A DNA stretch of 62,978 nt, filler included. It is 7 parts of 7 records of this genome, joined end to end, with 100 filler letters (N's around TTAATTAATTAA, not from the genome) between each part and the next. Parts side by side here need not be neighbours in the genome. Positions count along the whole stretch, not along the records: positions 1 to 11,433 come from DRR723986_9413; 6 more parts are not named here. One strand, given 5' to 3'. The position numbers and the translations under genes are program-made. A model generated the notes under the pieces. The model saw nothing but the letters and a program-made list of their open reading frames with translations, searched no databases and was not told the DNA's origin. Shown here in pieces: positions 1-57,698 of the stretch (positions are counted from its first letter, which is position 1; every line of letters starts with the position of its first letter).

Positions 1-1
1 T

Positions 2-145
2 TGCTGCGATCCTTGCGGTGGACGCAAAGGTTTCTTCGCTAAGCTTCGTGAGCGATGTGCTGCACGCAAGGCTGCTTCTTGCTGCGACGTAGCTCCAAGC
101 TGCGGTTGCGAAATGCCAGTTGCAAGCTGCGGATGCGGCATGTAA
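2..145 (+). CDS. 3' end of a Cys-rich protein (partial, Planctomycete-type)
   Basis: Manual translation of frame 2: CCDPCGGRKGFFAKLRERCAARKAASCCDVAPSCGCEMPVASCGCGM*; followed by a terminator. Not in the ORF track because its start lies outside the window. Confidence 0.75.
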   Translation, partial: CCDPCGGRKGFFAKLRERCAARKAASCCDVAPSCGCEMPVASCGCGM

Positions 146-211
146 TCTGCCTCCGGCTGTAACGCTCGCTGGCCAAGTTAGCCTGTAGCTACAGTCGGAA
201 CCTGAAAGATC

Positions 212-250
212 AAAAGCGGTAGTTCACCCCCAGTGAGCTGCCGCTTTTTT
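212..250 (+). terminator. Rho-independent terminator (possibly bidirectional)
   Basis: AAAAGCGGTAGTTCAC-CCCCA-GTGAGCTGCCGCTTTTTT hairpin with G-U pairs and T tract. Confidence 0.8.
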
Positions 251-773
251 CGTTGCAACACTCAGTAAGCCTTGCCTCGGTAAAACCCCGTCTCAGTAAC
301 ACCCCGCCTCCGAACTACATTTCACCCCACCGCCTCACAATCGTCCGCTCACTACTTGCCACCTCTGCCTTTGGGGGGAGTCGTTCGCCGGCCCTGGAGC
401 GCCTGGAGAGGGCGTTGCATAGCACACAGCCGCACCGGCGTCTCGCGAAGTCAAACGAACCCCAGCCCGAGTCACTTTGCCCTTTGGGACAGGTCGGGTG
501 CCAGCCGTGAACCACGCCTCATCAACTCCGCGCGCCCTCGAAGTCTTGACAACGAGCGCAAAACCGAGGCACAAATCCCAACCGTGCGAAACTCTGACAC
601 CCGATTGGGGGATGGCTCTACGTTGAAAACGGGCGTCGCTGGCCCTACAATGACAGTCACTTCCGAGCGAAGCTGGCAAGTTTCGTCCCTCCTCTCGGTC
701 TCGCATTTCCGCTCACATGCGAATGCCGAATCACCCCCACAGGTTACCTTCTCCGATGAAAAAGACTCTCCCG

Positions 774-2090
774 ATGCACAACCAAGAAACCAATTCAGCG
801 GCCTCCACGTCTCCTGCCACCAGTCGCCGCGCGTTCGTGAAGACGTCGGCCATCGCGGCGGGCGGCGTGAGTATGGTTCACTCAAGTGTGAAGGCGGCAG
901 ACGACAATCGTGAACTACGGCTTGCACTGGTCGGCTGCGGTGGCCGAGGGAAGGGAGCAGTCAACGATACGCTCAGCATCAACGAAAATGTAAGAGTTGT
1001 TGCCCTAGCAGACCTTTACATGAAGAATTGCCAGGGAACCGTTCGAGCTCTTGGGAAGAAATACCCCGAGAAGATTGACGTGCAAGAAGACCGGATGTTC
1101 GACGGCCTGGATGGCTACAAACGGATCCTTGACGACAGTTCCATCGACGTCGTCATGTTTGCGACTTCGCCAGGCTTCCGCCCTCCTTACGTACTGGAGG
1201 CGGTTCAAGCTGGAAAACACGTCTTTGCGGAAAAACCAAGTTGCGTCGATCCAGCAGGCTACCGAAAAAATCTCGAAGCGCACGAACTGGCACTCAAGAG
1301 CAACACCGCGATCGTCACCGGTACGCAGTATCGCCGCCAGTTGAACTACAAAGAAGCGGTTGCCAAGATCCACGCGGGTGAGATTGGCGACATCATTGGT
1401 GCAACGACTCGATATTGCACTGGCCGCATCTGGCACCGCAACCGAGCCGAGGGCATGTCGGACACCGAATATCAGTTGTTCAACTGGATGCATCACGTGT
1501 GGTTGAGTGGTGATCATATCGCTGAACAGGCGGTTCACAACATTGATGCTATCAACTGGATCATGGGCGGCCCACCTGAGTCGGCCTACGGCAGCGGCGG
1601 GCGTCACCAGCGCCCCGATGGCAGCGAACTTTGGGATAGCTTTGCGATCGATTACATGTACCCGGGCAACCGACTCTGCTCATTCATGTGTCGGCAACTA
1701 GGCGGGACTGATTACGATAACGGCAATTGGGTCTACGGCAGCAAGGGCCGGATGTTCATTGGTGCAATCAATTCACCAGCGATCATGTACGACAAATCTG
1801 GCGAAAAGGTCTGGGAGGAAAAGGGCAATATTGGTGCCGCTTATCAACAAGAGCACAAGGACCTAATCGACTCAATTCGCGCTGGCGAACCAATCGTTGA
1901 ACTGAAGCAAACTGCCGAAAGCTCCTTAACTGCTGCGATGGGTCGCATGACGGCTTACACGGGCAAGAAAGTGACTTGGGACTTTGCCAGCAAGGATTCT
2001 GAGCTGGATCTGTTCCCGGCCGATATTGACTGGGATGCCGCTATGGAAGTTGCTCCAATCGCAGTTCCGGGCGAAACGAAACTTCTGTAG
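774..2090 (+). CDS. Gfo/Idh/MocA family oxidoreductase with Tat signal
   Basis: SRRAFVK twin-arginine motif, LVGCGGRG Rossmann motif, GKHVFAEKP motif. Start uncertain (717/756/774). Confidence 0.9.
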   Translation: MHNQETNSAASTSPATSRRAFVKTSAIAAGGVSMVHSSVKAADDNRELRLALVGCGGRGKGAVNDTLSINENVRVVALADLYMKNCQGTVRALGKKYPEKIDVQEDRMFDGLDGYKRILDDSSIDVVMFATSPGFRPPYVLEAVQAGKHVFAEKPSCVDPAGYRKNLEAHELALKSNTAIVTGTQYRRQLNYKEAVAKIHAGEIGDIIGATTRYCTGRIWHRNRAEGMSDTEYQLFNWMHHVWLSGDHIAEQAVHNIDAINWIMGGPPESAYGSGGRHQRPDGSELWDSFAIDYMYPGNRLCSFMCRQLGGTDYDNGNWVYGSKGRMFIGAINSPAIMYDKSGEKVWEEKGNIGAAYQQEHKDLIDSIRAGEPIVELKQTAESSLTAAMGRMTAYTGKKVTWDFASKDSELDLFPADIDWDAAMEVAPIAVPGETKLL

Positions 2091-2163
2091 TCTCGCGAGA
2101 CCGCATTGAAGCGTTTGAGCACTGAAGCTCTACGTAAGATCCTTACTCTGGAGATTGACGCCC

Positions 2164-3495
2164 ATGCCGACCTTCCTGCAAAACAAATCTCTGAGTCGGC
2201 GCACTCTCCTGCGAGGGCTCGGCGTTTCACTTGCACTACCGATGCTCGATGCAATGCGCCCGGCTGTCTCATTTGCTTCAGCCTCCGCCGAGGAACAATC
2301 CAAGCCGAGGCGGATGATCGGAATTTGCAACAACCTTGGATTGCTGCCCAAGAACTTCTTTCCGGAGTCACCGGCCGACGGCGCGAGCCCGTCCGAGTAC
2401 AAACTTTCGCCCTACTTGGAACTGCTGAAGAAACATCGCGACGACTTTACGGTGTTTAGTGGTGTTTGGCACCCGGACGTGGATGGCGGTCACCCAGCAG
2501 ACATCTGCTTTCTCACCGCCGCACCACATCCTGGATCGGGCGGATTCCGCAATACAATTTCGCTCGACCAGTTTATTGCGGAGCGCATCGGTCACCTGAC
2601 GCGTTTCCCGTCAATGACGCTAGGCGTAAACGTCAACCAAGGCCTGCGCAGTCTTTCCTGGACTGGTGCGGGCGTCTTGATCCCCTGCGAAGAGAGCCCA
2701 CGGAACGTTTATGAGCAGCTCTTCTTGCAGGGTTCCGCGAAGCAGATTGAACTGCAGAAGAAGAAGCTCGAAGTCGGCAAGAGCATTATGGATGCGGTTG
2801 CTGGCCAAACGAAAAGCTTGATGAAGGAGCTGGGGCCGAAAGACCGGCAGCGCGTCGACCAGTACTTGACCGGAGTTCGCGATCTGGAACAGCGGCTGGA
2901 CGCCGAGCACGCGTGGCAATCGATCCCCAAACCTAAGCCCAACAGCGAGCCGCCTCGCGATCCTTCCGACCCGAAGGAATACATGGCCAAGGTGAAACTA
3001 CTGTACGACATGTCTCGTGTCGCCCTGGAGACTGACTCTACGCGAGCGATCACACTGATGCTAGACAGTGTTAATTCCCCTGCAATTGATATCGACGGGA
3101 CGGACATTACCGACGGATATCACAATCTGTCTCATCACGGGAAGAACGAAAAGAAGATTGCCCAGTTGGAAGTCATTGATCGTGGGCACATGAAACTGCT
3201 TGACGAGTTATTCAGTTCGATGAAGAGTGTGCGGGAAGACGACGACACGCTACTCGATCGCACGACGATCATCTACGGCAGCAATCTAGGTGACGCAAAT
3301 ACTCACGTGACAACAAACATGCCCGTTCTGTGTGCTGGCGGTGGTTTCAAGCATGGTCAACACTTAGCCTTTGACCGCACGAACAACTACCCACTTCCGA
3401 ATCTGTTTGTATCCATGCTTCAGCGTATGGGAATGCCAGTAGATCAGTTTGCCACATCAACCGGCACCATGCGTGGCCTCGAATTTGCCTCGTAG
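2164..3495 (+). CDS. DUF1552 domain protein (Tat signal)
   Basis: [23 protein letters not shown]-terminus, [16 protein letters not shown] and C-terminal [10 protein letters not shown] typical of DUF1552; GGAG RBS upstream of ATG 2164. Confidence 0.88.
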
Positions 3496-4256
3496 TCTCC
3501 CGCCGCCGAGTGTTTGGTCGCATCGAATACACCGGCTGCATCTCATCGATTGTTCGGGACGACTACCTAGTCGTTCTGGTTCGTCATGACTTCGAAGGGC
3601 GATAGGCAATTCCTCTGTCGTTCAATTGGTTCACACACGAGATGCCATCGACGCGTTTCCTGTGGTTCGCACACAAATTCGGCTCTGATCGAACTTGCTA
3701 CGAGCAGGGCTGCTCGGCTAGCAATTAGGTGCAAAACGCCAGCGCCCTTCGATGTAATCAGCGGAACGCAGCAGCGATCGTGAATTGCACCTCGCTCGGG
3801 CCCGACAAGACGCCAACCACGGCTCTGACTCTGACGCGGCTAACTTCGCTTCGCAGCTTGCGACTCCTGTTGGTACGCAAACTTCTGCCCCTCTGGGTTC
3901 CAACATGCTTACCTGATCCGAAAGCACTGCACTTTCAGGGGCCATGCCCCTGAGCCAAAAGAGTGGTCTCGGAGCTGGCCCAAATATTTGCCTACTCACG
4001 AGTCGGCTGCAACAAGGTGTGTTATACTCGAGCCGATAGTATTGCAGTCATGGAGATATGGGTGCAAGCACTTGATTGTAGACTTGGCTAAGGTCACTTT
4101 TTCGCGGTCTCATCCCTCACCTTCACCAAGGTACGAGTTGCAAAAGACTGCGTTCGCTGGATTGCTGTCGGCCTTTCGCCAGAGGCTTGCTGATTGCATC
4201 TCAGGTAGCGAAGTGCAACCTTAAGTTGGCCAAAAAGGAATAGAACGAGCAGGACA

Positions 4257-7217
4257 ATGAATCGAGCAAACAACTACCCAGGAAAACTGGCAATCACTCT
4301 ACTGGCGGTTGCCTGTGGCCTTTGTAGCACAGACTGCAAGGCTGATATAAAGACATTGAAAATGCCTGGCGCCTACGCTGGTTTCGCGTTCCAACCTGAG
4401 TCTGGCGATCTAGTTGCGCTCGACGGTAAAAATGGAAAGGCGGTGTACTTTCGTGGGAGCGATTTGAATAGCGGGAAAGCTGAACCGGCATCAAGTCTTC
4501 GTGTTGGTTCGCAGCCTGTGAGCGTGTTTTACAAGGACTACCAAAACGTCGGGTACTACGCGGTTGTGTGTTCGAGAGATTCACACATGTACTTGATCAA
4601 GTCCGATGACTTCAGCTTGGCGGCCAAGATCAAGCTCAACCAGGCTGGAGTAAGGCTGGTAACGGGATCGCAAAATAAAGATGACCCATTCCTGTACTAC
4701 TGCTTCGGCAATGGCCACGATTGCGCAACTGGTGCGGTAAGCCTTCGGGACTTCAAGAACAAAGGAGGCGTGTTCGACGATTCAATGGATTGTGCGATCT
4801 CGGCTCAAGGCAACATCGCTTACCGCCGTGGCCCGTTCTCGCCATCGGGCTTCGAATCGCTCATTCGTACGAATGAATTGGAGGCGGAAATTCCGAAATT
4901 TGACCGCCTTTTCTATGACCACGACTCTACGATGCAGTATGTTCCCGACCCATTCAATCGATTCACCGCCGCTGGTAGCGACGTTTACACACGCTCGCTT
5001 GAACAAAATGTTGCACTACTGGATTTCATTCCCCATCAATTCTTTCACGATCGACCGTTAATTATCGGAGTAAAGAAGCTGGACCCGGTTTATGCGATGC
5101 GGGATCCCAGTTCCAATGCGGTTCAACTGAGAGCCGGCTCCTACAACACGTTCAGCAGTATCGGGGATTGGGTCACTCTGCCTTCTGCTGATTCAAAGCC
5201 TGATGACAAAACGGGCCGCGGATTCCCGTCTAGCTGGACTAGGGAAAAAAGTTTATGGCTGTTTGCTGATGCGAAGCGTGACCAGGTAGTCGTTGCACTC
5301 AAGAGCCGAGTCCACTTGGTCCCACTTGCAGAGTTCAACCTTCCCGAAGAACCATTCTTATTTGCAGACTTGCACGGCGCAGACGACATTACTGTTGGCC
5401 GAGAGACAAAATTCAAATTGGTACCGCGTGACGAACGCGTCGAAGTACTGATTGAGGATCTTCCGGCGGGGATCAAACGCAACGGCTTGAATTTTTTTTG
5501 GACTCCCAGCATGGATTCTGTGGGATCGACCGATTTGTCAGTGACTCTGAAGCACGGAGAAATTCAACGCACTTTGAACTTCGATTTGCAAGTGAAGTAT
5601 CCAGGAGTAAAACTCCCGTTTGCCCCGAGCGACATTGCTGTTTCGACCAATGGCGAGCACGCTGTGATCTGGGAAGGCATCCCACCGGATAGATTCGGCA
5701 GGTCACGGCCTGTTCCCCAACAAGGTCCGCTCAAGATTGCCGTGGTTCAGTTGGAAAACGGGGACGTCAAAGCGGAACGTAAAATCGCTTCGCCAATTGA
5801 TAGCGCCATGTTGATCGGAAACAGTTGTCTCGTGTGGAACACCAAAGCTACACCCAAATTTGATGTTTTGAAGTTGGATAGCCTCGACCGTGCGGCGACA
5901 ATCGCAACTGCAGGACCAATCATACAGATCGAGAGCGCAGGTAAGCTCATACTGGTTCGGACGACAGAACAAATCGAAGCCTACGAAACACAACAATGGA
6001 AAAAAGTCCGCGTCTTCCAACCTGATTCCTTTGATCGCCGCATGCCCAATAGGAACGGAGAGATAAGTTTGGTTGGTCGTCACGGAATCTATCTGAAGAA
6101 CCTGCTCTACGATTTCGAGCTTAAGCCGAAGCTACTGCCCGACCGACGTGGACTCCCAACTCTCGCAGGTGCCACTTCAGGAGGCGATGCAGCCTTCTAC
6201 AAAGAATTCGAACAGAAGACTAACACTAGGGTGGAACGTTATAATCCGAGCGCAACCGAGACAGCCATAGTTGGGGCTTCTCCAATCCCTGGTTCAAGTG
6301 GTGATGTCCAGCTTGTTCGATCACTTAATACGATCAAAGTACCGGGATCCATGCACACCAACAGGAAGCATTATGAGTTGAGCGTTTCCTCGACGGGTGA
6401 CCGGCCCGGACGCCAAGTACTTCTACGCAAATCGATGCACGGGCATGCAAATTTAGGGATCCCATCAATCCGCCCGCGAGTCAAGGCTACAAACCGCACA
6501 GCCGTCGTCGTCCATGAAAACACTCTTTATCGTTGGCCAATTCCCGAACCCATCGAATCTCCACAGCAGTTGGATGGTGTATTTAGCTTCATACCGAAGC
6601 AGTCCGTTTTGGCGATTGATCCCCAAGGCACTACGCTACTTAAACACGCAACGACCGGCGGTCAGTCGCCCGTGAAGTACTCCATCCCTTCACCATATAG
6701 CGGCCTCAAAATTGACGAAAAATCCGGAACGATAACCGTCGACAATGCCAGCATGCTGAAGGAAGCCGAGAAAGCCCTTGAGAAGTCGATTCTTGATTCG
6801 AGACGCGGCAACTCGCTTGTTGATACGCTCAGAGATTGGGCAGGCCAGCGTATGGAAACTGCGGCTCTGATGCTGGGCCGACGTGCGAAAGGACTTCCGG
6901 TGGCGATTCCGATTCGGGTCAATGCCTCTGATGACAATCTCGCAAATGCCTCCCTTCAGTATTTTCTGATAGCGGAGGTGCCAGCACGCCAATTTATGTC
7001 CAAGATGCGAAAGCTGGACGAGGAGCGGGAAAAGATGCTGGAGCAGGGTCACCAGCGAAGACTAGCTGACGCACTGGCTAGGCCCCAAAACCCAAGCCAA
7101 TTCCAAGAAGCAGAAACAATCGAATTTCTGGCTCGAAAAGTGGCGGCCCTGGAAGATCGGATTGATCTGCTAACACGGCAGATGTCCCAATTGCTAGAAG
7201 AGCAGGAAAAACGATAG
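4257..7217 (+). CDS. Large secreted hypothetical protein (beta-rich, Ig/cadherin-like modules, C-terminal coiled coil)
   Basis: 986-aa ORF, AGGA upstream, hydrophobic signal peptide, LPAG...FFWTP and YSGLKIDEKSGTITV Ig-like motifs. Confidence 0.75.
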   Translation: MNRANNYPGKLAITLLAVACGLCSTDCKADIKTLKMPGAYAGFAFQPESGDLVALDGKNGKAVYFRGSDLNSGKAEPASSLRVGSQPVSVFYKDYQNVGYYAVVCSRDSHMYLIKSDDFSLAAKIKLNQAGVRLVTGSQNKDDPFLYYCFGNGHDCATGAVSLRDFKNKGGVFDDSMDCAISAQGNIAYRRGPFSPSGFESLIRTNELEAEIPKFDRLFYDHDSTMQYVPDPFNRFTAAGSDVYTRSLEQNVALLDFIPHQFFHDRPLIIGVKKLDPVYAMRDPSSNAVQLRAGSYNTFSSIGDWVTLPSADSKPDDKTGRGFPSSWTREKSLWLFADAKRDQVVVALKSRVHLVPLAEFNLPEEPFLFADLHGADDITVGRETKFKLVPRDERVEVLIEDLPAGIKRNGLNFFWTPSMDSVGSTDLSVTLKHGEIQRTLNFDLQVKYPGVKLPFAPSDIAVSTNGEHAVIWEGIPPDRFGRSRPVPQQGPLKIAVVQLENGDVKAERKIASPIDSAMLIGNSCLVWNTKATPKFDVLKLDSLDRAATIATAGPIIQIESAGKLILVRTTEQIEAYETQQWKKVRVFQPDSFDRRMPNRNGEISLVGRHGIYLKNLLYDFELKPKLLPDRRGLPTLAGATSGGDAAFYKEFEQKTNTRVERYNPSATETAIVGASPIPGSSGDVQLVRSLNTIKVPGSMHTNRKHYELSVSSTGDRPGRQVLLRKSMHGHANLGIPSIRPRVKATNRTAVVVHENTLYRWPIPEPIESPQQLDGVFSFIPKQSVLAIDPQGTTLLKHATTGGQSPVKYSIPSPYSGLKIDEKSGTITVDNASMLKEAEKALEKSILDSRRGNSLVDTLRDWAGQRMETAALMLGRRAKGLPVAIPIRVNASDDNLANASLQYFLIAEVPARQFMSKMRKLDEEREKMLEQGHQRRLADALARPQNPSQFQEAETIEFLARKVAALEDRIDLLTRQMSQLLEEQEKR

Positions 7218-7560
7218 TTCAGTACCCCGTTTTTGATGAAAGACGTTGATCGCCCGATCTTTCCTGGATGCTTCACATGGTTTGATCGGCGGTACTTCAA
7301 GCTACGATAGTGAATACGGATTTCCCATGAGTAACCCTGGACACAGGACTGACTGAGCTTGCACTAACAATGACAAGCAGTGTACTGACGAAAGAGAAGT
7401 TTCGTGAAACTTTTTCTCTGCAGTTTGGTCTTGATATTTTGCATCAACATGCTTGCGGTCGGTGCGATTTATATTCGTGAGGTCCCTTATGGCCCGAGGG
7501 CAATTCCCGGAGCTAGTCAAGACCATCTTGCCCTCGGCGAACGTTTGCTGCAGTGTCATG

Positions 7561-7602
7561 CTTTCACCAATGCGATACATCCTTTCACCAATGCGATACA
7601 TC
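7561..7602. repeat. Exact 21-bp tandem duplication
   Basis: CTTTCACCAATGCGATACATC x2. Confidence 0.9.
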
Positions 7603-7810
7603 GGAGGCCCTTTTCTGTCTGTCCTTTCCTGATCGTAACGGGGCTGAGAGATACGGGTTTACGGAGTCGGTTATCCGGCGGATCAGTGGTCTGACAGAAT
7701 CTTTTGGGCACAGCCGTAGACGCTGGAGTTGTGCAGAGTTTGCTGAAGCATCTAGAATGTCGCTTCGTAAACGAGTGGCGGCGGCGAGGCAAGGGATGGA
7801 AACGGCACTG

Positions 7811-8086
7811 ATGAGCTACGATGATTATGATGACGAAGAAGAGGATGGAGCAACGTTCCCTTGTCAGGAGTGTGGTGCGGATGTGTGGGTTGATGCAGAG
7901 ATTTGCTCTCGATGCGGCACTTACGTCACCGACGAAGACTGGGGAAACCACACCGCTAGCAGCCAGTCTCGGACTCCAGCTTGGATCAAGTTGACCGCGC
8001 TCGTATTGATCGGGCTGTTCATCCTGTCGGCCGTGGTGCCGCTGGTGAATTCGTTGACTCCGCCTCCAGTACCAGGTGGCGAATAG
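7811..8086 (+). CDS. Small zinc-ribbon protein with C-terminal membrane helix
   Basis: MSYDDYDDEEED acidic start, CQECG...CSRCG double CxxC, hydrophobic WIKLTALVLIGLFILSAVV. Start trimmed from ORF 7553. Confidence 0.75.
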   Translation: MSYDDYDDEEEDGATFPCQECGADVWVDAEICSRCGTYVTDEDWGNHTASSQSRTPAWIKLTALVLIGLFILSAVVPLVNSLTPPPVPGGE

Positions 8087-8142
8087 CATGCTTGCACCTA
8101 CAAAAACGGCTGGCATGTTGCAACAAGCAGGAGCGGCCGAGC

Positions 8143-8826
8143 GTGGGTAGCGGTACCTACTCTGGCAAACCGGAGGTTTTCCCGGCTGAGCCCGATTCAA
8201 CGTCGTGGCAGGATACTGATCCCGGGGCCTTGGAGTTGTTTATCGTTGAGGGGCGTTCGGCGGCACTCAGCATTGCTGCACTTCGGGAGCCGAGTTCTCA
8301 GGCCGTCATGGGGCTACAAGGAAAACCGATCAACGCACTTAAGGCGTCCGAGAAGCGCGTTTCCGCTCATCCGTTCTATGGCCTGCTTTCGCAGCAGATT
8401 GCCGGACCACACGCGACTGGCAAGCTGATCCTGCTATTCGATCCTGACGCGGATGGAATCCACTGTAGCGCTCTGCTGCTTGGGTTCTTGCTCAAGTGTC
8501 ATCGGCAAACGCTGGAACAAGGTCGAGTGTTCGCCGCTCGTGCACCGGTGCTGGAGGTCGTTGCGCGACGGGAGCACACTAAAGCCGGAGAACCTGCGCA
8601 GTGTGATGAAGTCTTCTACGCGTACGCAGATGGAAACACCAATCGTCTCTTGCGCGACGTTCGTTTGGCTGGCCTGGAAATTGTCAGTCGGAAATACTTC
8701 CGCGGCCTGGGTGGCATACCGCCCAAGATTCTCAGGACGCAGTGCGTTGATCCGCGAACACGCGACCTTGTGCCGATCACTATCGCGGAGGCCGAGACGG
8801 CAGCCAAGATTTTCCTAGGAGGCTAG
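8143..8826 (+). CDS. Stand-alone GyrB/ParE-type TOPRIM domain protein (no ATPase domain)
   Basis: ELFIVEGRSA, GLQGKPIN, DPDADGIH and YFRGLGG align to GyrB EGDSA, PLRGKILN, DADVDGSH and YKGLGEM motifs; AGGAG RBS 9 nt before GTG 8143. Confidence 0.85.
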   Translation: MGSGTYSGKPEVFPAEPDSTSWQDTDPGALELFIVEGRSAALSIAALREPSSQAVMGLQGKPINALKASEKRVSAHPFYGLLSQQIAGPHATGKLILLFDPDADGIHCSALLLGFLLKCHRQTLEQGRVFAARAPVLEVVARREHTKAGEPAQCDEVFYAYADGNTNRLLRDVRLAGLEIVSRKYFRGLGGIPPKILRTQCVDPRTRDLVPITIAEAETAAKIFLGG

Positions 8827-8858
8827 GCACTCAGCATTCACTAGTCGTCACTCATTCA

Positions 8859-9554
8859 CTAATCGTCGGCTCGGCTGAGGAGACGGCTGGCCGCGGCAAG
8901 TGAGTTTTCGCCAAGCTGTTCAATTTGGCTGTCGAGCCAAGCAGCGGCATGACCGTAGCGTCTGCCGGGTGTGAGGGCGAGGTCTCGGATCTGCGTCGGG
9001 TCCGGGCCTGTGAAGTTGCTGGCCAGTTGTGAGCTTTCCCGGCGTCCAGCATCAACGGCACTGCGGAGGCTTTCACTCAGCGCCATACTGGTTTTCGTCG
9101 CAACGGTACCAAACACCTCCTGCAGTGCGGCGTTGGTTGCAACAAGCGGCGCGAGATCCTCGGCAGAGGGCTTTCGAACCTCTTGAACGTCATCTCGCAT
9201 CGGCTCGGCTTGATCAGGAGCTTGGCCGCCGGCGACTTCTGGAGCTGAATCGCTAGGACTAAACAACCAAAATCCACCAACGAGCAAGAGTGCTGCGGTT
9301 GCTGCCAACACGACTCTCCTCGCCAGGATGCCACCGGAATGATTGTCGCCAAGTGAGCCCTTGCCACTGACAGGAGCGGCTAAACGATACGGCTGCACCT
9401 TCTCGGAGGTCGCATTGCGAATGATTTCATCTTGCAGAGCTTTTCCACGAGCCGACTCAAACTCAGCCGACCAACCACTTGCGTCGCTTCGCAGTTTTTC
9501 TGCGAGCTTGTCTTCGGAAAGCTTCTTTTCAGTACCGCCACTCATTTCGTTCAC
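8859..9554 (-). CDS. Putative single-pass membrane anti-sigma factor
   Basis: Starts 3 nt after the ECF sigma stop; short cytoplasmic N-terminus, one TM helix (VVLAATAALLLVGGFWLF). Confidence 0.65.
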   Translation of the reverse strand: MNEMSGGTEKKLSEDKLAEKLRSDASGWSAEFESARGKALQDEIIRNATSEKVQPYRLAAPVSGKGSLGDNHSGGILARRVVLAATAALLLVGGFWLFSPSDSAPEVAGGQAPDQAEPMRDDVQEVRKPSAEDLAPLVATNAALQEVFGTVATKTSMALSESLRSAVDAGRRESSQLASNFTGPDPTQIRDLALTPGRRYGHAAAWLDSQIEQLGENSLAAASRLLSRADD

Positions 9555-9557
9555 CGT

Positions 9558-10208
9558 CTATTGTTCTTTGTCGAGTCGTTTGGCGAGCAACTTCCTGGCT
9601 CGGTGCAACGTAACTCGTATGGACACTTGGGATTTCCCAAGAGCTTTACTAATTTCTGCAACGGACATTTCCTCGCCGTACTTGAGCCATAATGCGGAGT
9701 ACTGTTCTTTGGACAGCAATCGGCTGGCCTGTCCCCACAGATTCCCTTCGTCTGCGGGCCGCGGCTGAGGTGCAACGAGGTGCGAAGTCACATCCGGCGT
9801 TTTGTCGTGATCGGGCACCCGAGCCTGTCGGCGATGAAAGTCGATTGCCTGCCGCCTGGCGATCGTGTAGACCCAGGTTGAGAACTGGTAGCGTGCGTCA
9901 AACTTGTGAAGTTGACTCCAGGCTCGCGTCAGGGTGTCTGCCGCAACATCTTCCGCGTCTTGCAAGTGTCCGAGCCGCTTGTACAGAAAACTAACCAGCC
10001 GAGGATAGAAGTGCTCGGTTAGTTCGCCGAACGATGCATTGCACCCTTTGGTCGCCTTGGCAACAAGCTGTTGCATTTGCCCGCGTTCACTTACTTCGCG
10101 GCGTTCACTGACTGGCGCATCACTCCCACCAGCTTGCGACATTTCTGTCGCAAACGAATTGGTAGGTTGACCAAGGATGGATCCTTGGGAGACGCGAACT
10201 TGGGACAA
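9558..10208 (-). CDS. ECF-family RNA polymerase sigma-70 factor
   Basis: Sigma2 DAEDV...FSTWVYTIARR and sigma4 SVAEISKALG...LHRARKLL motifs. Start may be further downstream. Confidence 0.92.
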   Translation of the reverse strand: MSQVRVSQGSILGQPTNSFATEMSQAGGSDAPVSERREVSERGQMQQLVAKATKGCNASFGELTEHFYPRLVSFLYKRLGHLQDAEDVAADTLTRAWSQLHKFDARYQFSTWVYTIARRQAIDFHRRQARVPDHDKTPDVTSHLVAPQPRPADEGNLWGQASRLLSKEQYSALWLKYGEEMSVAEISKALGKSQVSIRVTLHRARKLLAKRLDKEQ

Positions 10209-10279
10209 GTCGATTACCTTCTACAGCGAAATAGTCCGGCAGTACTGCAAGGCCTCTACAGCCTAGAGTATTGCGAGTC

Positions 10280-11299
10280 CTACAGTGGCAGGTCCGCTTC
10301 TTCGCGGAGGAACTTGATCACCAATTGCAGTGGCAGATCGAAGGTTGCCGTGACCACATTGTCTTCTTGATCCACGTTGATCGATTCGATCACACTTGAC
10401 GCGGCATCGCGAAGTTCTTCATTCTCTTTCAGTTCATCAACTGATTCTACCATCAACGAAGCCGCAGCCGAAACTCCTTGGATTAGTTGTCGAATCTGCT
10501 CGGCACGCTTATCGCTCTCGGCAGTTACCGACACGGTTGTCGTCAGGACATCATCTCCCTCGGCAACAGAGACAGCGGCACTTTGAAGTGACTTGACGAC
10601 GTTCGCGAACGGTTCGTCGTCCTCGATGATATCCTTCGGAAGCTCGATCAACGTCACTCGAGCGAACACGCCCCGCGGCAAGTCGGTGTCTACCGTCATC
10701 GTCTTCCACGGCTCAGCGTCGCTAGACTTCGCATCCGCAGTTGGTGCGAGCGACTCCAAGAGCGACATCACTCGATCCGAAGAAGGAGAGATTACAATCC
10801 AGTGGTTTCCGCTGGCATCTTTGTGAATCGCACCGCAGGCGGATTGGCCACCCTCTTTGACGGTGTGAATCGTATGCCCGGCCGCTTCGTGCGAAGAGTA
10901 GCCAGGCAGTGCGAGCAGTAACCCTTCGATGTTTCCAGTTGTTTTTCCAAGCTGGATAATCGCGCTGGCCGTCTTCGGGTTGACATCTTCCAGGTTGTTT
11001 ACTGCGAGAGTGATTGTTCGGATTTCCTGAAGTGGATCGAAGCCGAGCGTTTCGGTTACTTTCGCAAGCAGGTTTTCTTCATCGGTGCCAATTTCTGCGG
11101 CGGCTGTATTGGTTGTCAGCGTCAGCAGTCGCTGGCCAAGCGTACTATTCTTGAATTGCGTAACATCGACAGATGCAACAACCTGCGTATCGGCGGGCAG
11201 GTTCAGGTCCGATGCCTTGCAAGGCGACACCGCGAGACTAGAGAAAACCAGCCCCACAGCCACGAGAAATCTGCTCATCACAATCCGCGTCAATTTCAT
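10280..11299 (-). CDS. Secreted hypothetical protein
   Basis: Signal peptide ending PCKA, AAAGGA RBS before ATG 11299, LPADTQVVASVDV start of mature chain. Confidence 0.75.
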   Translation of the reverse strand: MKLTRIVMSRFLVAVGLVFSSLAVSPCKASDLNLPADTQVVASVDVTQFKNSTLGQRLLTLTTNTAAAEIGTDEENLLAKVTETLGFDPLQEIRTITLAVNNLEDVNPKTASAIIQLGKTTGNIEGLLLALPGYSSHEAAGHTIHTVKEGGQSACGAIHKDASGNHWIVISPSSDRVMSLLESLAPTADAKSSDAEPWKTMTVDTDLPRGVFARVTLIELPKDIIEDDEPFANVVKSLQSAAVSVAEGDDVLTTTVSVTAESDKRAEQIRQLIQGVSAAASLMVESVDELKENEELRDAASSVIESINVDQEDNVVTATFDLPLQLVIKFLREEADLPL

Positions 11300-11354
11300 A
11301 ATCAATTCCTTTACGTATCCTGCGGGAAGCACCGCAATATAAATTAGCAGTCAA

Positions 11355-11433
11355 ACTCCGCGTACCGATCCCAAAGTAGTAGGCACACTCCGCGTGCCGT
11401 TCGCAAAGTAGTAGGCACACTCCGTGTGCCGTC
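11355..11433. repeat. Tandem GTAG-type REP-like palindromes, 32-bp period
   Basis: CAAAGTAGTAGGCACACTCCG(C/T)GTGCCGT twice plus a degenerate partial copy; hairpin GGCACAC-TCC-GTGTGCC; runs into the contig end. Confidence 0.8.
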
Positions 11434-11533
11434 NNNNNNNNNNNNNNNNNNNNNNNNNNNNNNNNNNNNNNNNNNNNTTAATTAATTAANNNNNNNNNNN
11501 NNNNNNNNNNNNNNNNNNNNNNNNNNNNNNNNN
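11434..11533. other. Artificial contig spacer
   Basis: N-run with central TTAATTAATTAA, 100 nt. Confidence 0.99.
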
Positions 11534-17063: not shown

Positions 17064-17163
17064 NNNNNNNNNNNNNNNNNNNNNNNNNNNNNNNNNNNNN
17101 NNNNNNNTTAATTAATTAANNNNNNNNNNNNNNNNNNNNNNNNNNNNNNNNNNNNNNNNNNNN
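17064..17163. other. Artificial contig spacer
   Basis: N-run with TTAATTAATTAA. Confidence 0.99.
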
Positions 17164-23379: not shown

Positions 23380-23479
23380 NNNNNNNNNNNNNNNNNNNNN
23401 NNNNNNNNNNNNNNNNNNNNNNNTTAATTAATTAANNNNNNNNNNNNNNNNNNNNNNNNNNNNNNNNNNNNNNNNNNNN
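23380..23479. other. Artificial contig spacer
   Basis: N-run with TTAATTAATTAA. Confidence 0.99.
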
Positions 23480-32080: not shown

Positions 32081-32180
32081 NNNNNNNNNNNNNNNNNNNN
32101 NNNNNNNNNNNNNNNNNNNNNNNNTTAATTAATTAANNNNNNNNNNNNNNNNNNNNNNNNNNNNNNNNNNNNNNNNNNNN
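32081..32180. other. Artificial contig spacer
   Basis: N-run with TTAATTAATTAA. Confidence 0.99.
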
Positions 32181-48932: not shown

Positions 48933-49032
48933 NNNNNNNNNNNNNNNNNNNNNNNNNNNNNNNNNNNNNNNNNNNNTTAATTAATTAANNNNNNNNNNNN
49001 NNNNNNNNNNNNNNNNNNNNNNNNNNNNNNNN
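48933..49032. other. Artificial contig spacer
   Basis: N-run with TTAATTAATTAA. Confidence 0.99.
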
Positions 49033-57598: not shown

Positions 57599-57698
57599 NN
57601 NNNNNNNNNNNNNNNNNNNNNNNNNNNNNNNNNNNNNNNNNNTTAATTAATTAANNNNNNNNNNNNNNNNNNNNNNNNNNNNNNNNNNNNNNNNNNNN
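57599..57698. other. Artificial contig spacer
   Basis: N-run with TTAATTAATTAA. Confidence 0.99.

Follow-up and report, generated by a model that had tools for sequence, protein, structure and literature searches.

A stand-alone TOPRIM gene on an 11.4-kb contig

The stretch of DNA analysed here, hereafter the window (62,978 nucleotides), is a chain of several contigs joined through N linkers, and its first piece (1-11433) carries a gene for a 227-aa protein made up of the TOPRIM domain and tail of a type IIA topoisomerase B subunit (GyrB/ParE), without the rest of that subunit. The gene and the elements of its product are listed below.

8143..8826, plus strand: stand-alone GyrB/ParE-type coding sequence, TOPRIM plus tail, 227 aa, GTG start and TAG stop (open frame, homologue starts)
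8129..8133, plus strand: ribosome-binding site AGGAG, 9 nt before the GTG (direct reading of the sequence)
8233..8532, plus strand: TOPRIM domain, residues 31-130 (Pfam PF01751, AlphaFold2 model, Foldseek)
8248..8262, plus strand: EGRSA motif, with E36 at 8248-8250 and R38 at 8254-8256 (alignments)
8311..8334, plus strand: GLQGKPIN, the family counterpart of PL[RK]GKILN, with Q59 at 8317-8319 (alignments)
8440..8463, plus strand: DPDADGIH, with the metal-binding D100, D102 and D104 and with H107 (alignments)
8698..8814, plus strand: GyrB-tail-like segment FRGLGG...CVDPRTR...AAKIF, residues 186-224 (sub-cut-off match to Pfam PF00986, alignment)

The GTG at 8143 was taken as the start because the two closest homologues, P0002 (227 aa, 78% identity) and P0003 (241 aa, 65%), begin at the corresponding residue; a longer reading from a TTG at 7981 is possible. 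An earlier, sequence-only reading of this DNA had described an open reading frame (ORF) of about 227 codons with its own ribosome-binding site, starting at the TOPRIM boundary, ending before the last GyrB helix and lacking the GHKL ATPase and transducer domains, and each of these points was borne out. The Pfam Toprim profile matched residues 31-130 (3.6e-10, 40.3 bits against a cut-off of 23.1), and positions 9-47 of the 63 in the DNA_gyraseB_C profile aligned with residues 186-224 below the cut-off (2.7e-4, 21.5 bits against 29.8). Neither the GHKL ATPase domain (HATPase_c) nor the transducer domain (PF00204, DNA_gyraseB) gave a Pfam match in the 227-aa protein. The NCBIfam models of gyrB and parE aligned with it only through their positions ~407-614 and gave 62-86 bits, the cut-offs being 723-900; the best score was 86.4 bits against 740, over positions 416-614 of a 641-position model.

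Structure-based comparisons pointed to the same part of the enzyme. A sequence search of the PDB returned the M. tuberculosis GyrB TOPRIM first (1.9e-16, over residues 22-224) and also matched S. pneumoniae ParE30 (9.3e-15). An AlphaFold2 model built on a 30-sequence alignment reached a mean predicted local distance difference test score (pLDDT) of 89.8 and a predicted template modelling score (pTM) of 0.86, and Foldseek aligned this model with GyrB/ParE TOPRIM-plus-tail chains (5bs8, 3k9f, 3ksa and 6waa) at template modelling (TM) scores of 0.70-0.73 over about 226-229 columns.

Residue correspondences were taken from an alignment with the annotated record of E. coli K-12 GyrB. The window protein spans from about residue 395-405 to near residue 780 of the 804 in E. 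coli GyrB, with an alignment gap at 601-737 where the E. coli insertion is absent. The catalytic Glu and the three Asp were retained, as had been proposed: E36 aligns with E424, and D100, D102 and D104 with D498, D500 and D502; H107 further aligns with H505 and R198 with W751. The residues E36, D100, D102, D104 and H107 were invariant in 30/30 and in 60/60 aligned members of the family described below. Alignment also places R38 at E. coli D426 and Q59 at K447, the two positions to which the sequence-only reading had assigned the EGRSA and GLQGK changes.

When GyrB, ParE, GyrA and ParC of three genomes were searched against the whole window with tblastn, matches were confined to 8200-8814, with none elsewhere at E <0.09; the window therefore holds no ATPase remnant and no gyrA or parC gene, in agreement with the earlier observation that none lies nearby. 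For this gene, "nearby" means the ~8 kb upstream and 2.6 kb downstream on its own 11.4-kb contig; because the window is a chain of separate contigs, its distant parts may come from another replicon or organism. A promoter scan found 0 sigma-70-like sites, and terminator-like sites occurred at chance level.

A family of short forms with remodelled motifs

The window gene is an intact member of a conserved, uncharacterised family of ~220-aa proteins that consist of the B' module (TOPRIM plus tail) only. A length-restricted search of 5.8 billion proteins produced 861 candidates, of which 203 were homologues at E <= 0.001 (124-398 aa). Without a length limit, phmmer retrieved 2276 matches from 1.84 billion representatives, 282 of them at <= 1e-10; among the matches listed, all those above 81 bits were 172-294 aa long, and full-length GyrB/ParE started at about 81 bits. 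When longer proteins were searched with the family profile, the 120 best of the 8000 scored were ordinary GyrB/ParE (<=193 bits); almost every one had the four Pfam domains, the ATPase domain being absent from two rows of 507 aa, and none of these 120 was a fusion of the short TOPRIM form to another domain. Relatives were encoded in 344 stretches of GTDB (one genome per species), and the best 80 of the 344 came from Planctomycetota (47, including 38 Pirellulales), Pseudomonadota (29, mostly Burkholderiales with some Lysobacterales) and Verrucomicrobiota (1), with 3 unassigned. Among metagenome contigs, no relative of the window gene exceeded 44% identity. The window protein shares the length and boundaries of the family, which run to ~200-290 aa from the transducer-TOPRIM junction to a point before the last GyrB helix.

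Phylogenetic analysis separated the short forms from full-length B subunits. FastTree, supplied with 79 short forms and 25 full-length TOPRIM-to-C-terminus regions (one of 105 rows was dropped at the hidden Markov model step), placed 79/79 short forms in one clade without any full-length member (Shimodaira-Hasegawa-like support 0.758). In an IQ-TREE analysis that combined the window protein with a random draw of 34 other short forms and with the 25 full-length rows, the split between short (35) and full-length (25) sequences received an ultrafast bootstrap (UFBoot) value of 100. The window protein formed the earliest, long branch of the short forms in that tree, the other 34 being joined at 71, and on this placement the window copy represents a rare, early-branching subclade. 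Planctomycete and proteobacterial subclades were interleaved in the FastTree tree. This interleaving indicates movement of the family between phyla, a picture to which mis-binned contigs of metagenome-assembled genomes could contribute.

The family is under strong purifying selection. Nei-Gojobori ratios of nonsynonymous to synonymous substitution (dN/dS) for 33 family pairs at 70-97% identity, drawn from members other than the window protein's own subclade, were 0.040-0.172 in 32 pairs; the remaining pair, of nearly identical sequences with a dS of 0.04, gave 0.54. For the window subclade itself, the evidence of selection is an intact frame together with the retention of all family-invariant residues at 78% and 65% identity. 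The short family, its separation in the trees and these ratios uphold the earlier proposal of a dedicated gene rather than a pseudogene or a split gyrB. On its alignments and trees, the family represents the B subunit of a type IIA topoisomerase cut down to the cleavage module, with an evolution of its own.

A column-by-column comparison of the 79 short forms with the 25 full-length sequences defined a family signature. The short forms keep E..EG.SA, R..Q-A, GK.LN, D.D.DG.H, GLG (as RGL) and P.TR. Around these residues several motifs are rewritten: PL[RK]GK[IVM]LN becomes PMQGKPLN, with Q and P in 100% of short forms (Q in 79/79); DADVDG.HI becomes DPDADGIHC; A.PPLY becomes RAPL; [FY]KGLGEM becomes [FY]RGL[AG]x[I]; and ETT becomes ..tC, in which C is present in 100% (C201 of the window protein). 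A second Cys is frequent after the DxDxDG.H motif, and the Asp of EGDSA is kept in 78% of short forms, being replaced elsewhere by R, L, N or E. The window protein carries the signature QGKP.N, DPDADGIH, [FY]RGL and C in ..C.DP.TR as Q59 G K P62. N64, D100-H107, F186 R187 G L and C201. It departs from the canonical EGDSA and PL[RK]GK with EGRSA and GLQGK; EGRSA and GLQGKP (R38 for D, G57/L58 for P/M) are traits of its three-sequence subclade. The suggestion that these two changes mark resistance sites therefore survives in part: the correspondence to the E. coli positions stands, and a local resistance-like mutation does not, as Q is invariant throughout the family and EGRSA is confined to the three-sequence subclade.

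EGDSA and PLRGK are the TOPRIM DNA-contact motifs, at the +1/+4 and -1/+5 base pairs, according to the available text of one source (PMC11381327). The Glu is the sole catalytic residue among them; the pocket in which the gate poisons zoliflodacin and QPT-1 sit is lined by the D and the R/K, and in N. gonorrhoeae the substitutions D429N and K450T confer zoliflodacin resistance, as stated in another source (PMC9865888). From the retained metal ligands and the changed EGDSA/PLRGK positions it follows that the short forms have probably kept the chemistry and remodelled the surface of the DNA gate and drug pocket. Family-wide changes in both DNA-contact motifs beside the cleavage site suggest that the cleaved DNA gate may be handled differently.

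Carrier genomes, distribution and neighbourhood

In the five carrier genomes searched (Adhaeretor mobilis, Brachymonas sp., two Novipirellula species and Ottowia flava), exactly one short form is encoded per genome (235-306 bits with the family profile), and the same profile scored the TOPRIM regions of their full-length GyrB/ParE at 125-169 bits. The check for an intact gyrB elsewhere in the genome, advised on the basis of the sequence, had a positive outcome in all of them: full-length GyrB and GyrA were present in 5/5, and ParE-like and ParC-like proteins each in 4/5. Neither an ATPase half nor an A subunit occurred as an orphan in the five carriers, where all matches to PF00204 and PF00521 lay in full-length genes. 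Replacement of topoisomerase I was rejected as a role, as TopA is present in 5/5.

The short form was found in 14 of the 81 Pirellulaceae-level genomes sampled and in 3 of the 81 sampled from the family of Ottowia (Burkholderiaceae); in a GyrA tree, genomes that carry it alternate with sister genomes that do not. A ParC-like gene occurred in 12/14 Pirellulaceae genomes with the short form versus 13/67 without it. A link to ParC as partner was nevertheless rejected: shared ancestry accounts for most of the association, as ParC-like carriers fall mostly in one clade of the GyrA tree, within which the short form is patchy, and G038, G041 and Adhaeretor carry the short form without ParC. A second type IIA topoisomerase was present in about 25 of the 81 Pirellulaceae-level genomes, mostly in one clade, the others apparently having gyrase alone; in those ~25 genomes it is encoded by adjacent genes for a ParE-like protein of ~640 aa and a ParC-like protein of ~830 aa. 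The GyrA-tree rows G060 and G080 pair on a very long branch, which may reflect frame choice or a divergent or foreign gyrA.

One true member was found in a set of 72,556 plasmids; it is 47.9% identical to P0108 and lies on the 417-kb plasmid pTs417 of Ca. Thiodictyon syntrophicum. There it ends a same-strand run (742-7675 of locus L240) of genes for PRTRC system protein B, a hypothetical protein, an ATP-dependent helicase, an RNB-domain ribonuclease and the TOPRIM protein, with VirB10 fragments and a toxin-antitoxin pair further downstream. A plasmid of the pTs417 type is a possible vehicle for transfer between phyla. A phage origin was rejected: IMG/VR held 0 family relatives among 105 pattern matches, and the 12 matches listed in phage records (three called topoisomerase IV B, one hypothetical, eight unannotated) were at <=39% identity.

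When the ORFs of 79 loci and of the window were clustered all against all, with clusters that overlap the gene itself (antisense shadows) set aside, no conserved neighbour gene emerged, the largest cluster covering 7 loci. Because no neighbour is conserved, any partner would be encoded elsewhere, as gyrA is. The upstream neighbours assigned with Pfam (62 of 73, within 600 bp) were of heterogeneous housekeeping types, namely GFO/IDH/MocA (5) and GatB, DPRP, SRPBCC, SCPU and M41-like (2 each), with 21 in no family. Control by the SOS response was rejected, as the 79 upstream regions held one weak LexA-type box.

In the window, the neighbours are planctomycete-typical: a GFO/IDH/MocA oxidoreductase, a DUF1552 protein, a 986-aa protein, a small zinc-ribbon/membrane ORF that lies upstream on the same strand, with 56 nt between its end and the TOPRIM gene, and an opposite-strand extracytoplasmic function (ECF) sigma factor with two further ORFs.

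4257-7217, plus strand: 986-aa ORF with a signal-peptide-like N-terminus and a coiled-coil-like C-terminal tail (no Pfam family at E <= 0.01)
7557-7602: tandem repeat with a 21-bp unit (CATCCTTTCACCAATGCGATA) in 2.2 copies that match at 96%, ahead of the zinc-ribbon ORF in its 5' region or in intergenic DNA
7553-8086, plus strand: small ORF with a likely start near 7758, an acidic stretch, a CxxC...CxxC zinc-ribbon and a C-terminal hydrophobic helix (weak Pfam DZR/zinc-ribbon matches, E 0.002-0.006, below cut-offs)
8859-9554, minus strand: 231-aa ORF after the ECF sigma factor, possibly an anti-sigma factor (no family)
9558-10208, minus strand: ECF sigma factor gene (Sigma70_r2 and r4_2)
10280-11332, minus strand: 350-aa ORF before the ECF sigma factor, with an apparent signal peptide (no family)

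The ECF sigma set (8859-11332, minus strand) is convergent with the TOPRIM gene. Each linker of the window consists of two runs of 44 N around 12 bases; the linkers are at 11434-11533, 17064-17163, 23380-23479, 32081-32180, 48933-49032 and 57599-57698, and the guanine-plus-cytosine fraction of the pieces ranges from 0.51 to 0.63.

Candidate roles of the short protein

Engineered fragments of the B subunit offer the closest analogues. GyrB47 combined with the A subunit (A2) relaxes negatively supercoiled DNA without ATP, as reported in the accessible part of a paper that cites Brown et al. 1979 and Gellert et al. 1979 (PMC1635281), in line with what the sequence-only reading had stated of C-terminal GyrB fragments; ParE30 (404-647) and ParC55 assemble on DNA and give a cleavage complex, according to the available text of another study (PMC2893164). 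Like GyrB47, the window protein corresponds to the part of GyrB that follows the ATPase and transducer domains, with the metal-binding Glu and DxDxD kept; unlike it, the window protein is separately encoded and separately evolving, whereas GyrB47 derives from the full-length protein and has both the E. coli insertion and the last helix, which the window protein lacks. Its span and fold are also those of S. pneumoniae ParE30 and of the TOPRIM constructs of M. tuberculosis and S. aureus GyrB (3FOE, 3K9F, 3KSA, 5BS8, 2XCS), but these are engineered, with canonical EGDSA and PLRGK and the native C-terminus, in contrast to the PMQGKPLN, DPDADGIHC and RGL[AG] of the family, which is about 25-30% identical to them. 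The full-length GyrB and ParE of the carriers share a homologous TOPRIM and tail, from which the short forms differ in having no GHKL ATPase and no transducer, in scoring far below the NCBIfam cut-offs and in forming a separate clade.

By analogy with these fragments, we give about an even chance to the short protein being a catalytic B' subunit that is bound to an A subunit and lacks an ATPase. It would dock on the breakage-reunion domain of the host GyrA (or of ParC where present) in place of GyrB/ParE and would supply its metal-binding Glu and DxDxD to the catalytic tyrosine of the A subunit. A DNA-gate complex without an ATPase would result, equivalent in nature to "topoisomerase II-prime" (A2 with GyrB47) or to ParC55-ParE30. 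It could bind and cut DNA, close the break again and carry out relaxation with no need for ATP, in competition with the ATP-driven enzyme; in the cell it might serve as an extra relaxase, as a brake on supercoiling or as protection of the DNA gate.

Several observations weigh against this role. The gene never adjoins gyrA or parC, and with TopA in all five carriers an extra relaxase is not obviously required; being accessory and often lost between sister genomes, the short form must be dispensable for core topology. The family lacks the last ~24 residues (the final helix) of GyrB, which laboratory constructs all keep. The substitutions at conserved GyrB/ParE positions (R/K to Q, I to P, KGLGEM to RGL[AG]x[I], PPLY to APL) could affect contacts with DNA or with the A subunit, and the window subclade adds R for the Asp of EGDSA and G for the Pro of PLRGK.

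A rival explanation, which we consider unlikely, is that the protein binds GyrA/ParC (or the DNA gate) to regulate or protect it and is no enzyme subunit. It would then either lower supercoiling as a dominant-negative or, through its altered pocket, make the complexes it joins insensitive to natural poisons that wedge into the cleaved gate, with fewer lethal cleavage complexes as the outcome. The changed positions are exactly the TOPRIM side of the gate-poison pocket, where D429N and K450T confer resistance (PMC9865888, available portion); the R/K is Q in every short form while the D persists in only 78%; and an accessory, patchy, horizontally moved single gene, with one copy on a megaplasmid, resembles other stand-alone gyrase protection factors. 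YacG, the pentapeptide-repeat proteins (Qnr/MfpA) and GyrI are likewise small, singly encoded and could act on gyrase, though their folds are unrelated, and no TOPRIM-only paralogue is mentioned in the passages that a term search retrieved from the 2024 review of gyrase protein inhibitors that covers them (PMC10886550). The invariant metal ligands, however, speak for retained chemistry and against a protein that serves only as a decoy, none of the 62 upstream neighbours scanned pointed to a biosynthetic cluster or a toxin gene, and the 79 loci showed no LexA-type box beyond the one weak match.

An activity without any type IIA A subunit, as a Mg-dependent nickase, a nuclease or a DNA-end-binding factor that works alone or with an unlinked partner (in repair, or in the processing of plasmids and mobile elements), seems unlikely. 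TOPRIM domains act as nucleases in other families, namely OLD, Gabija and Wadjet JetD. The plasmid copy directly follows an ATP-dependent helicase and an RNB ribonuclease and lies beside a PRTRC gene, and the family has its own invariant C201 and its frequent second Cys after DxDxDG.H. Yet the helicase/RNB context recurred in 0/145 other loci, in known enzymes the nucleophile does not come from the GyrB-type TOPRIM itself, and the retained tail domain has its known role within the A2B2 core. Three members submitted to PADLOC matched 0 defence families and the upstream neighbours scanned were of housekeeping types, in contrast to the defence and nuclease TOPRIM families OLD, Gabija GajA, Wadjet JetD and PARIS AriB; the absence of relatives from IMG/VR and the low identity of the phage-record matches listed argue in the same direction. 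The free nuclease that had been among the options of the sequence-only reading thus gained no positive support.

Phage T4-type split topoisomerases and viral Toprim/TOPRIM_C proteins also have a TOPRIM encoded apart from the other parts of the enzyme, and a feature search of the Atlas returned a viral Toprim/TOPRIM_C cluster at a score of 0.92. T4 gp39, gp60 and gp52 are parts of a complete, co-encoded enzyme; the short form, by contrast, has no co-encoded parts, and no family member was found in the viral contigs of IMG/VR.

A decaying gyrB/parE remnant, or one half of a split gyrB with its ATPase half elsewhere, is already contradicted and highly improbable: the domain boundary does coincide with the transducer-TOPRIM junction and the window organism is represented by contigs rather than a whole genome, but the frame is open and as long as that of relatives at 78% and 65% identity, the family is monophyletic and under strong purifying selection, the window holds no ATPase remnant, the PF00204 matches of all five carriers lie in full-length B subunits, and the 120 best of 8000 longer proteins are ordinary GyrB/ParE. 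Something else altogether takes up the remaining probability.

Taken as a whole, the observation made in the sequence-only reading was confirmed and its interpretation partly supported. Its view of the gene as an undescribed system holds in that the family is unstudied; the family is not unseen, as NCBI already labels members "toprim domain-containing protein", a label as generic as the "DNA gyrase subunit B" of JGI. In the full-text literature, subscription-only titles being outside the scope of the search, no paper describing a stand-alone GyrB-type TOPRIM gene was found, and a planctomycete proteome paper treats, in its accessible text, only full-length GyrA/GyrB paralogues (PMC8567305).

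The ATPase-less B' fragment has been familiar since 1979 only as a breakdown product or laboratory construct. Here a B' protein is separately encoded, strongly conserved and horizontally transferred, and it is found in hundreds of species beside complete enzymes; its invariant changes fall on residues that line the pocket for cleaved DNA and drugs, in a class of enzymes, the type IIA topoisomerases, that is among the best-studied and among the best-studied drug targets. A more specific possibility, which we regard as doubtful, is that the family is a horizontally mobile "poison-proof" B' subunit that takes the place of GyrB/ParE on GyrA/ParC. The ATP-independent DNA-gate complexes formed in this way would have a pocket unable, owing to the Q at the R/K position and to the variable Asp, to accommodate natural toxins that wedge into the gate; the subunit might then confer tolerance, or an ATP-free reset of supercoiling at low energy, and would constitute a new class of topoisomerase modulator built from the enzyme's own cleavage domain. 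If the short protein does assemble with GyrA or ParC as a B' subunit, these bacteria would possess an overlooked, built-in ATP-independent or regulatory form of gyrase or topoisomerase IV; if it does not, a GyrB-type TOPRIM would have gained a new partner or a new chemistry.

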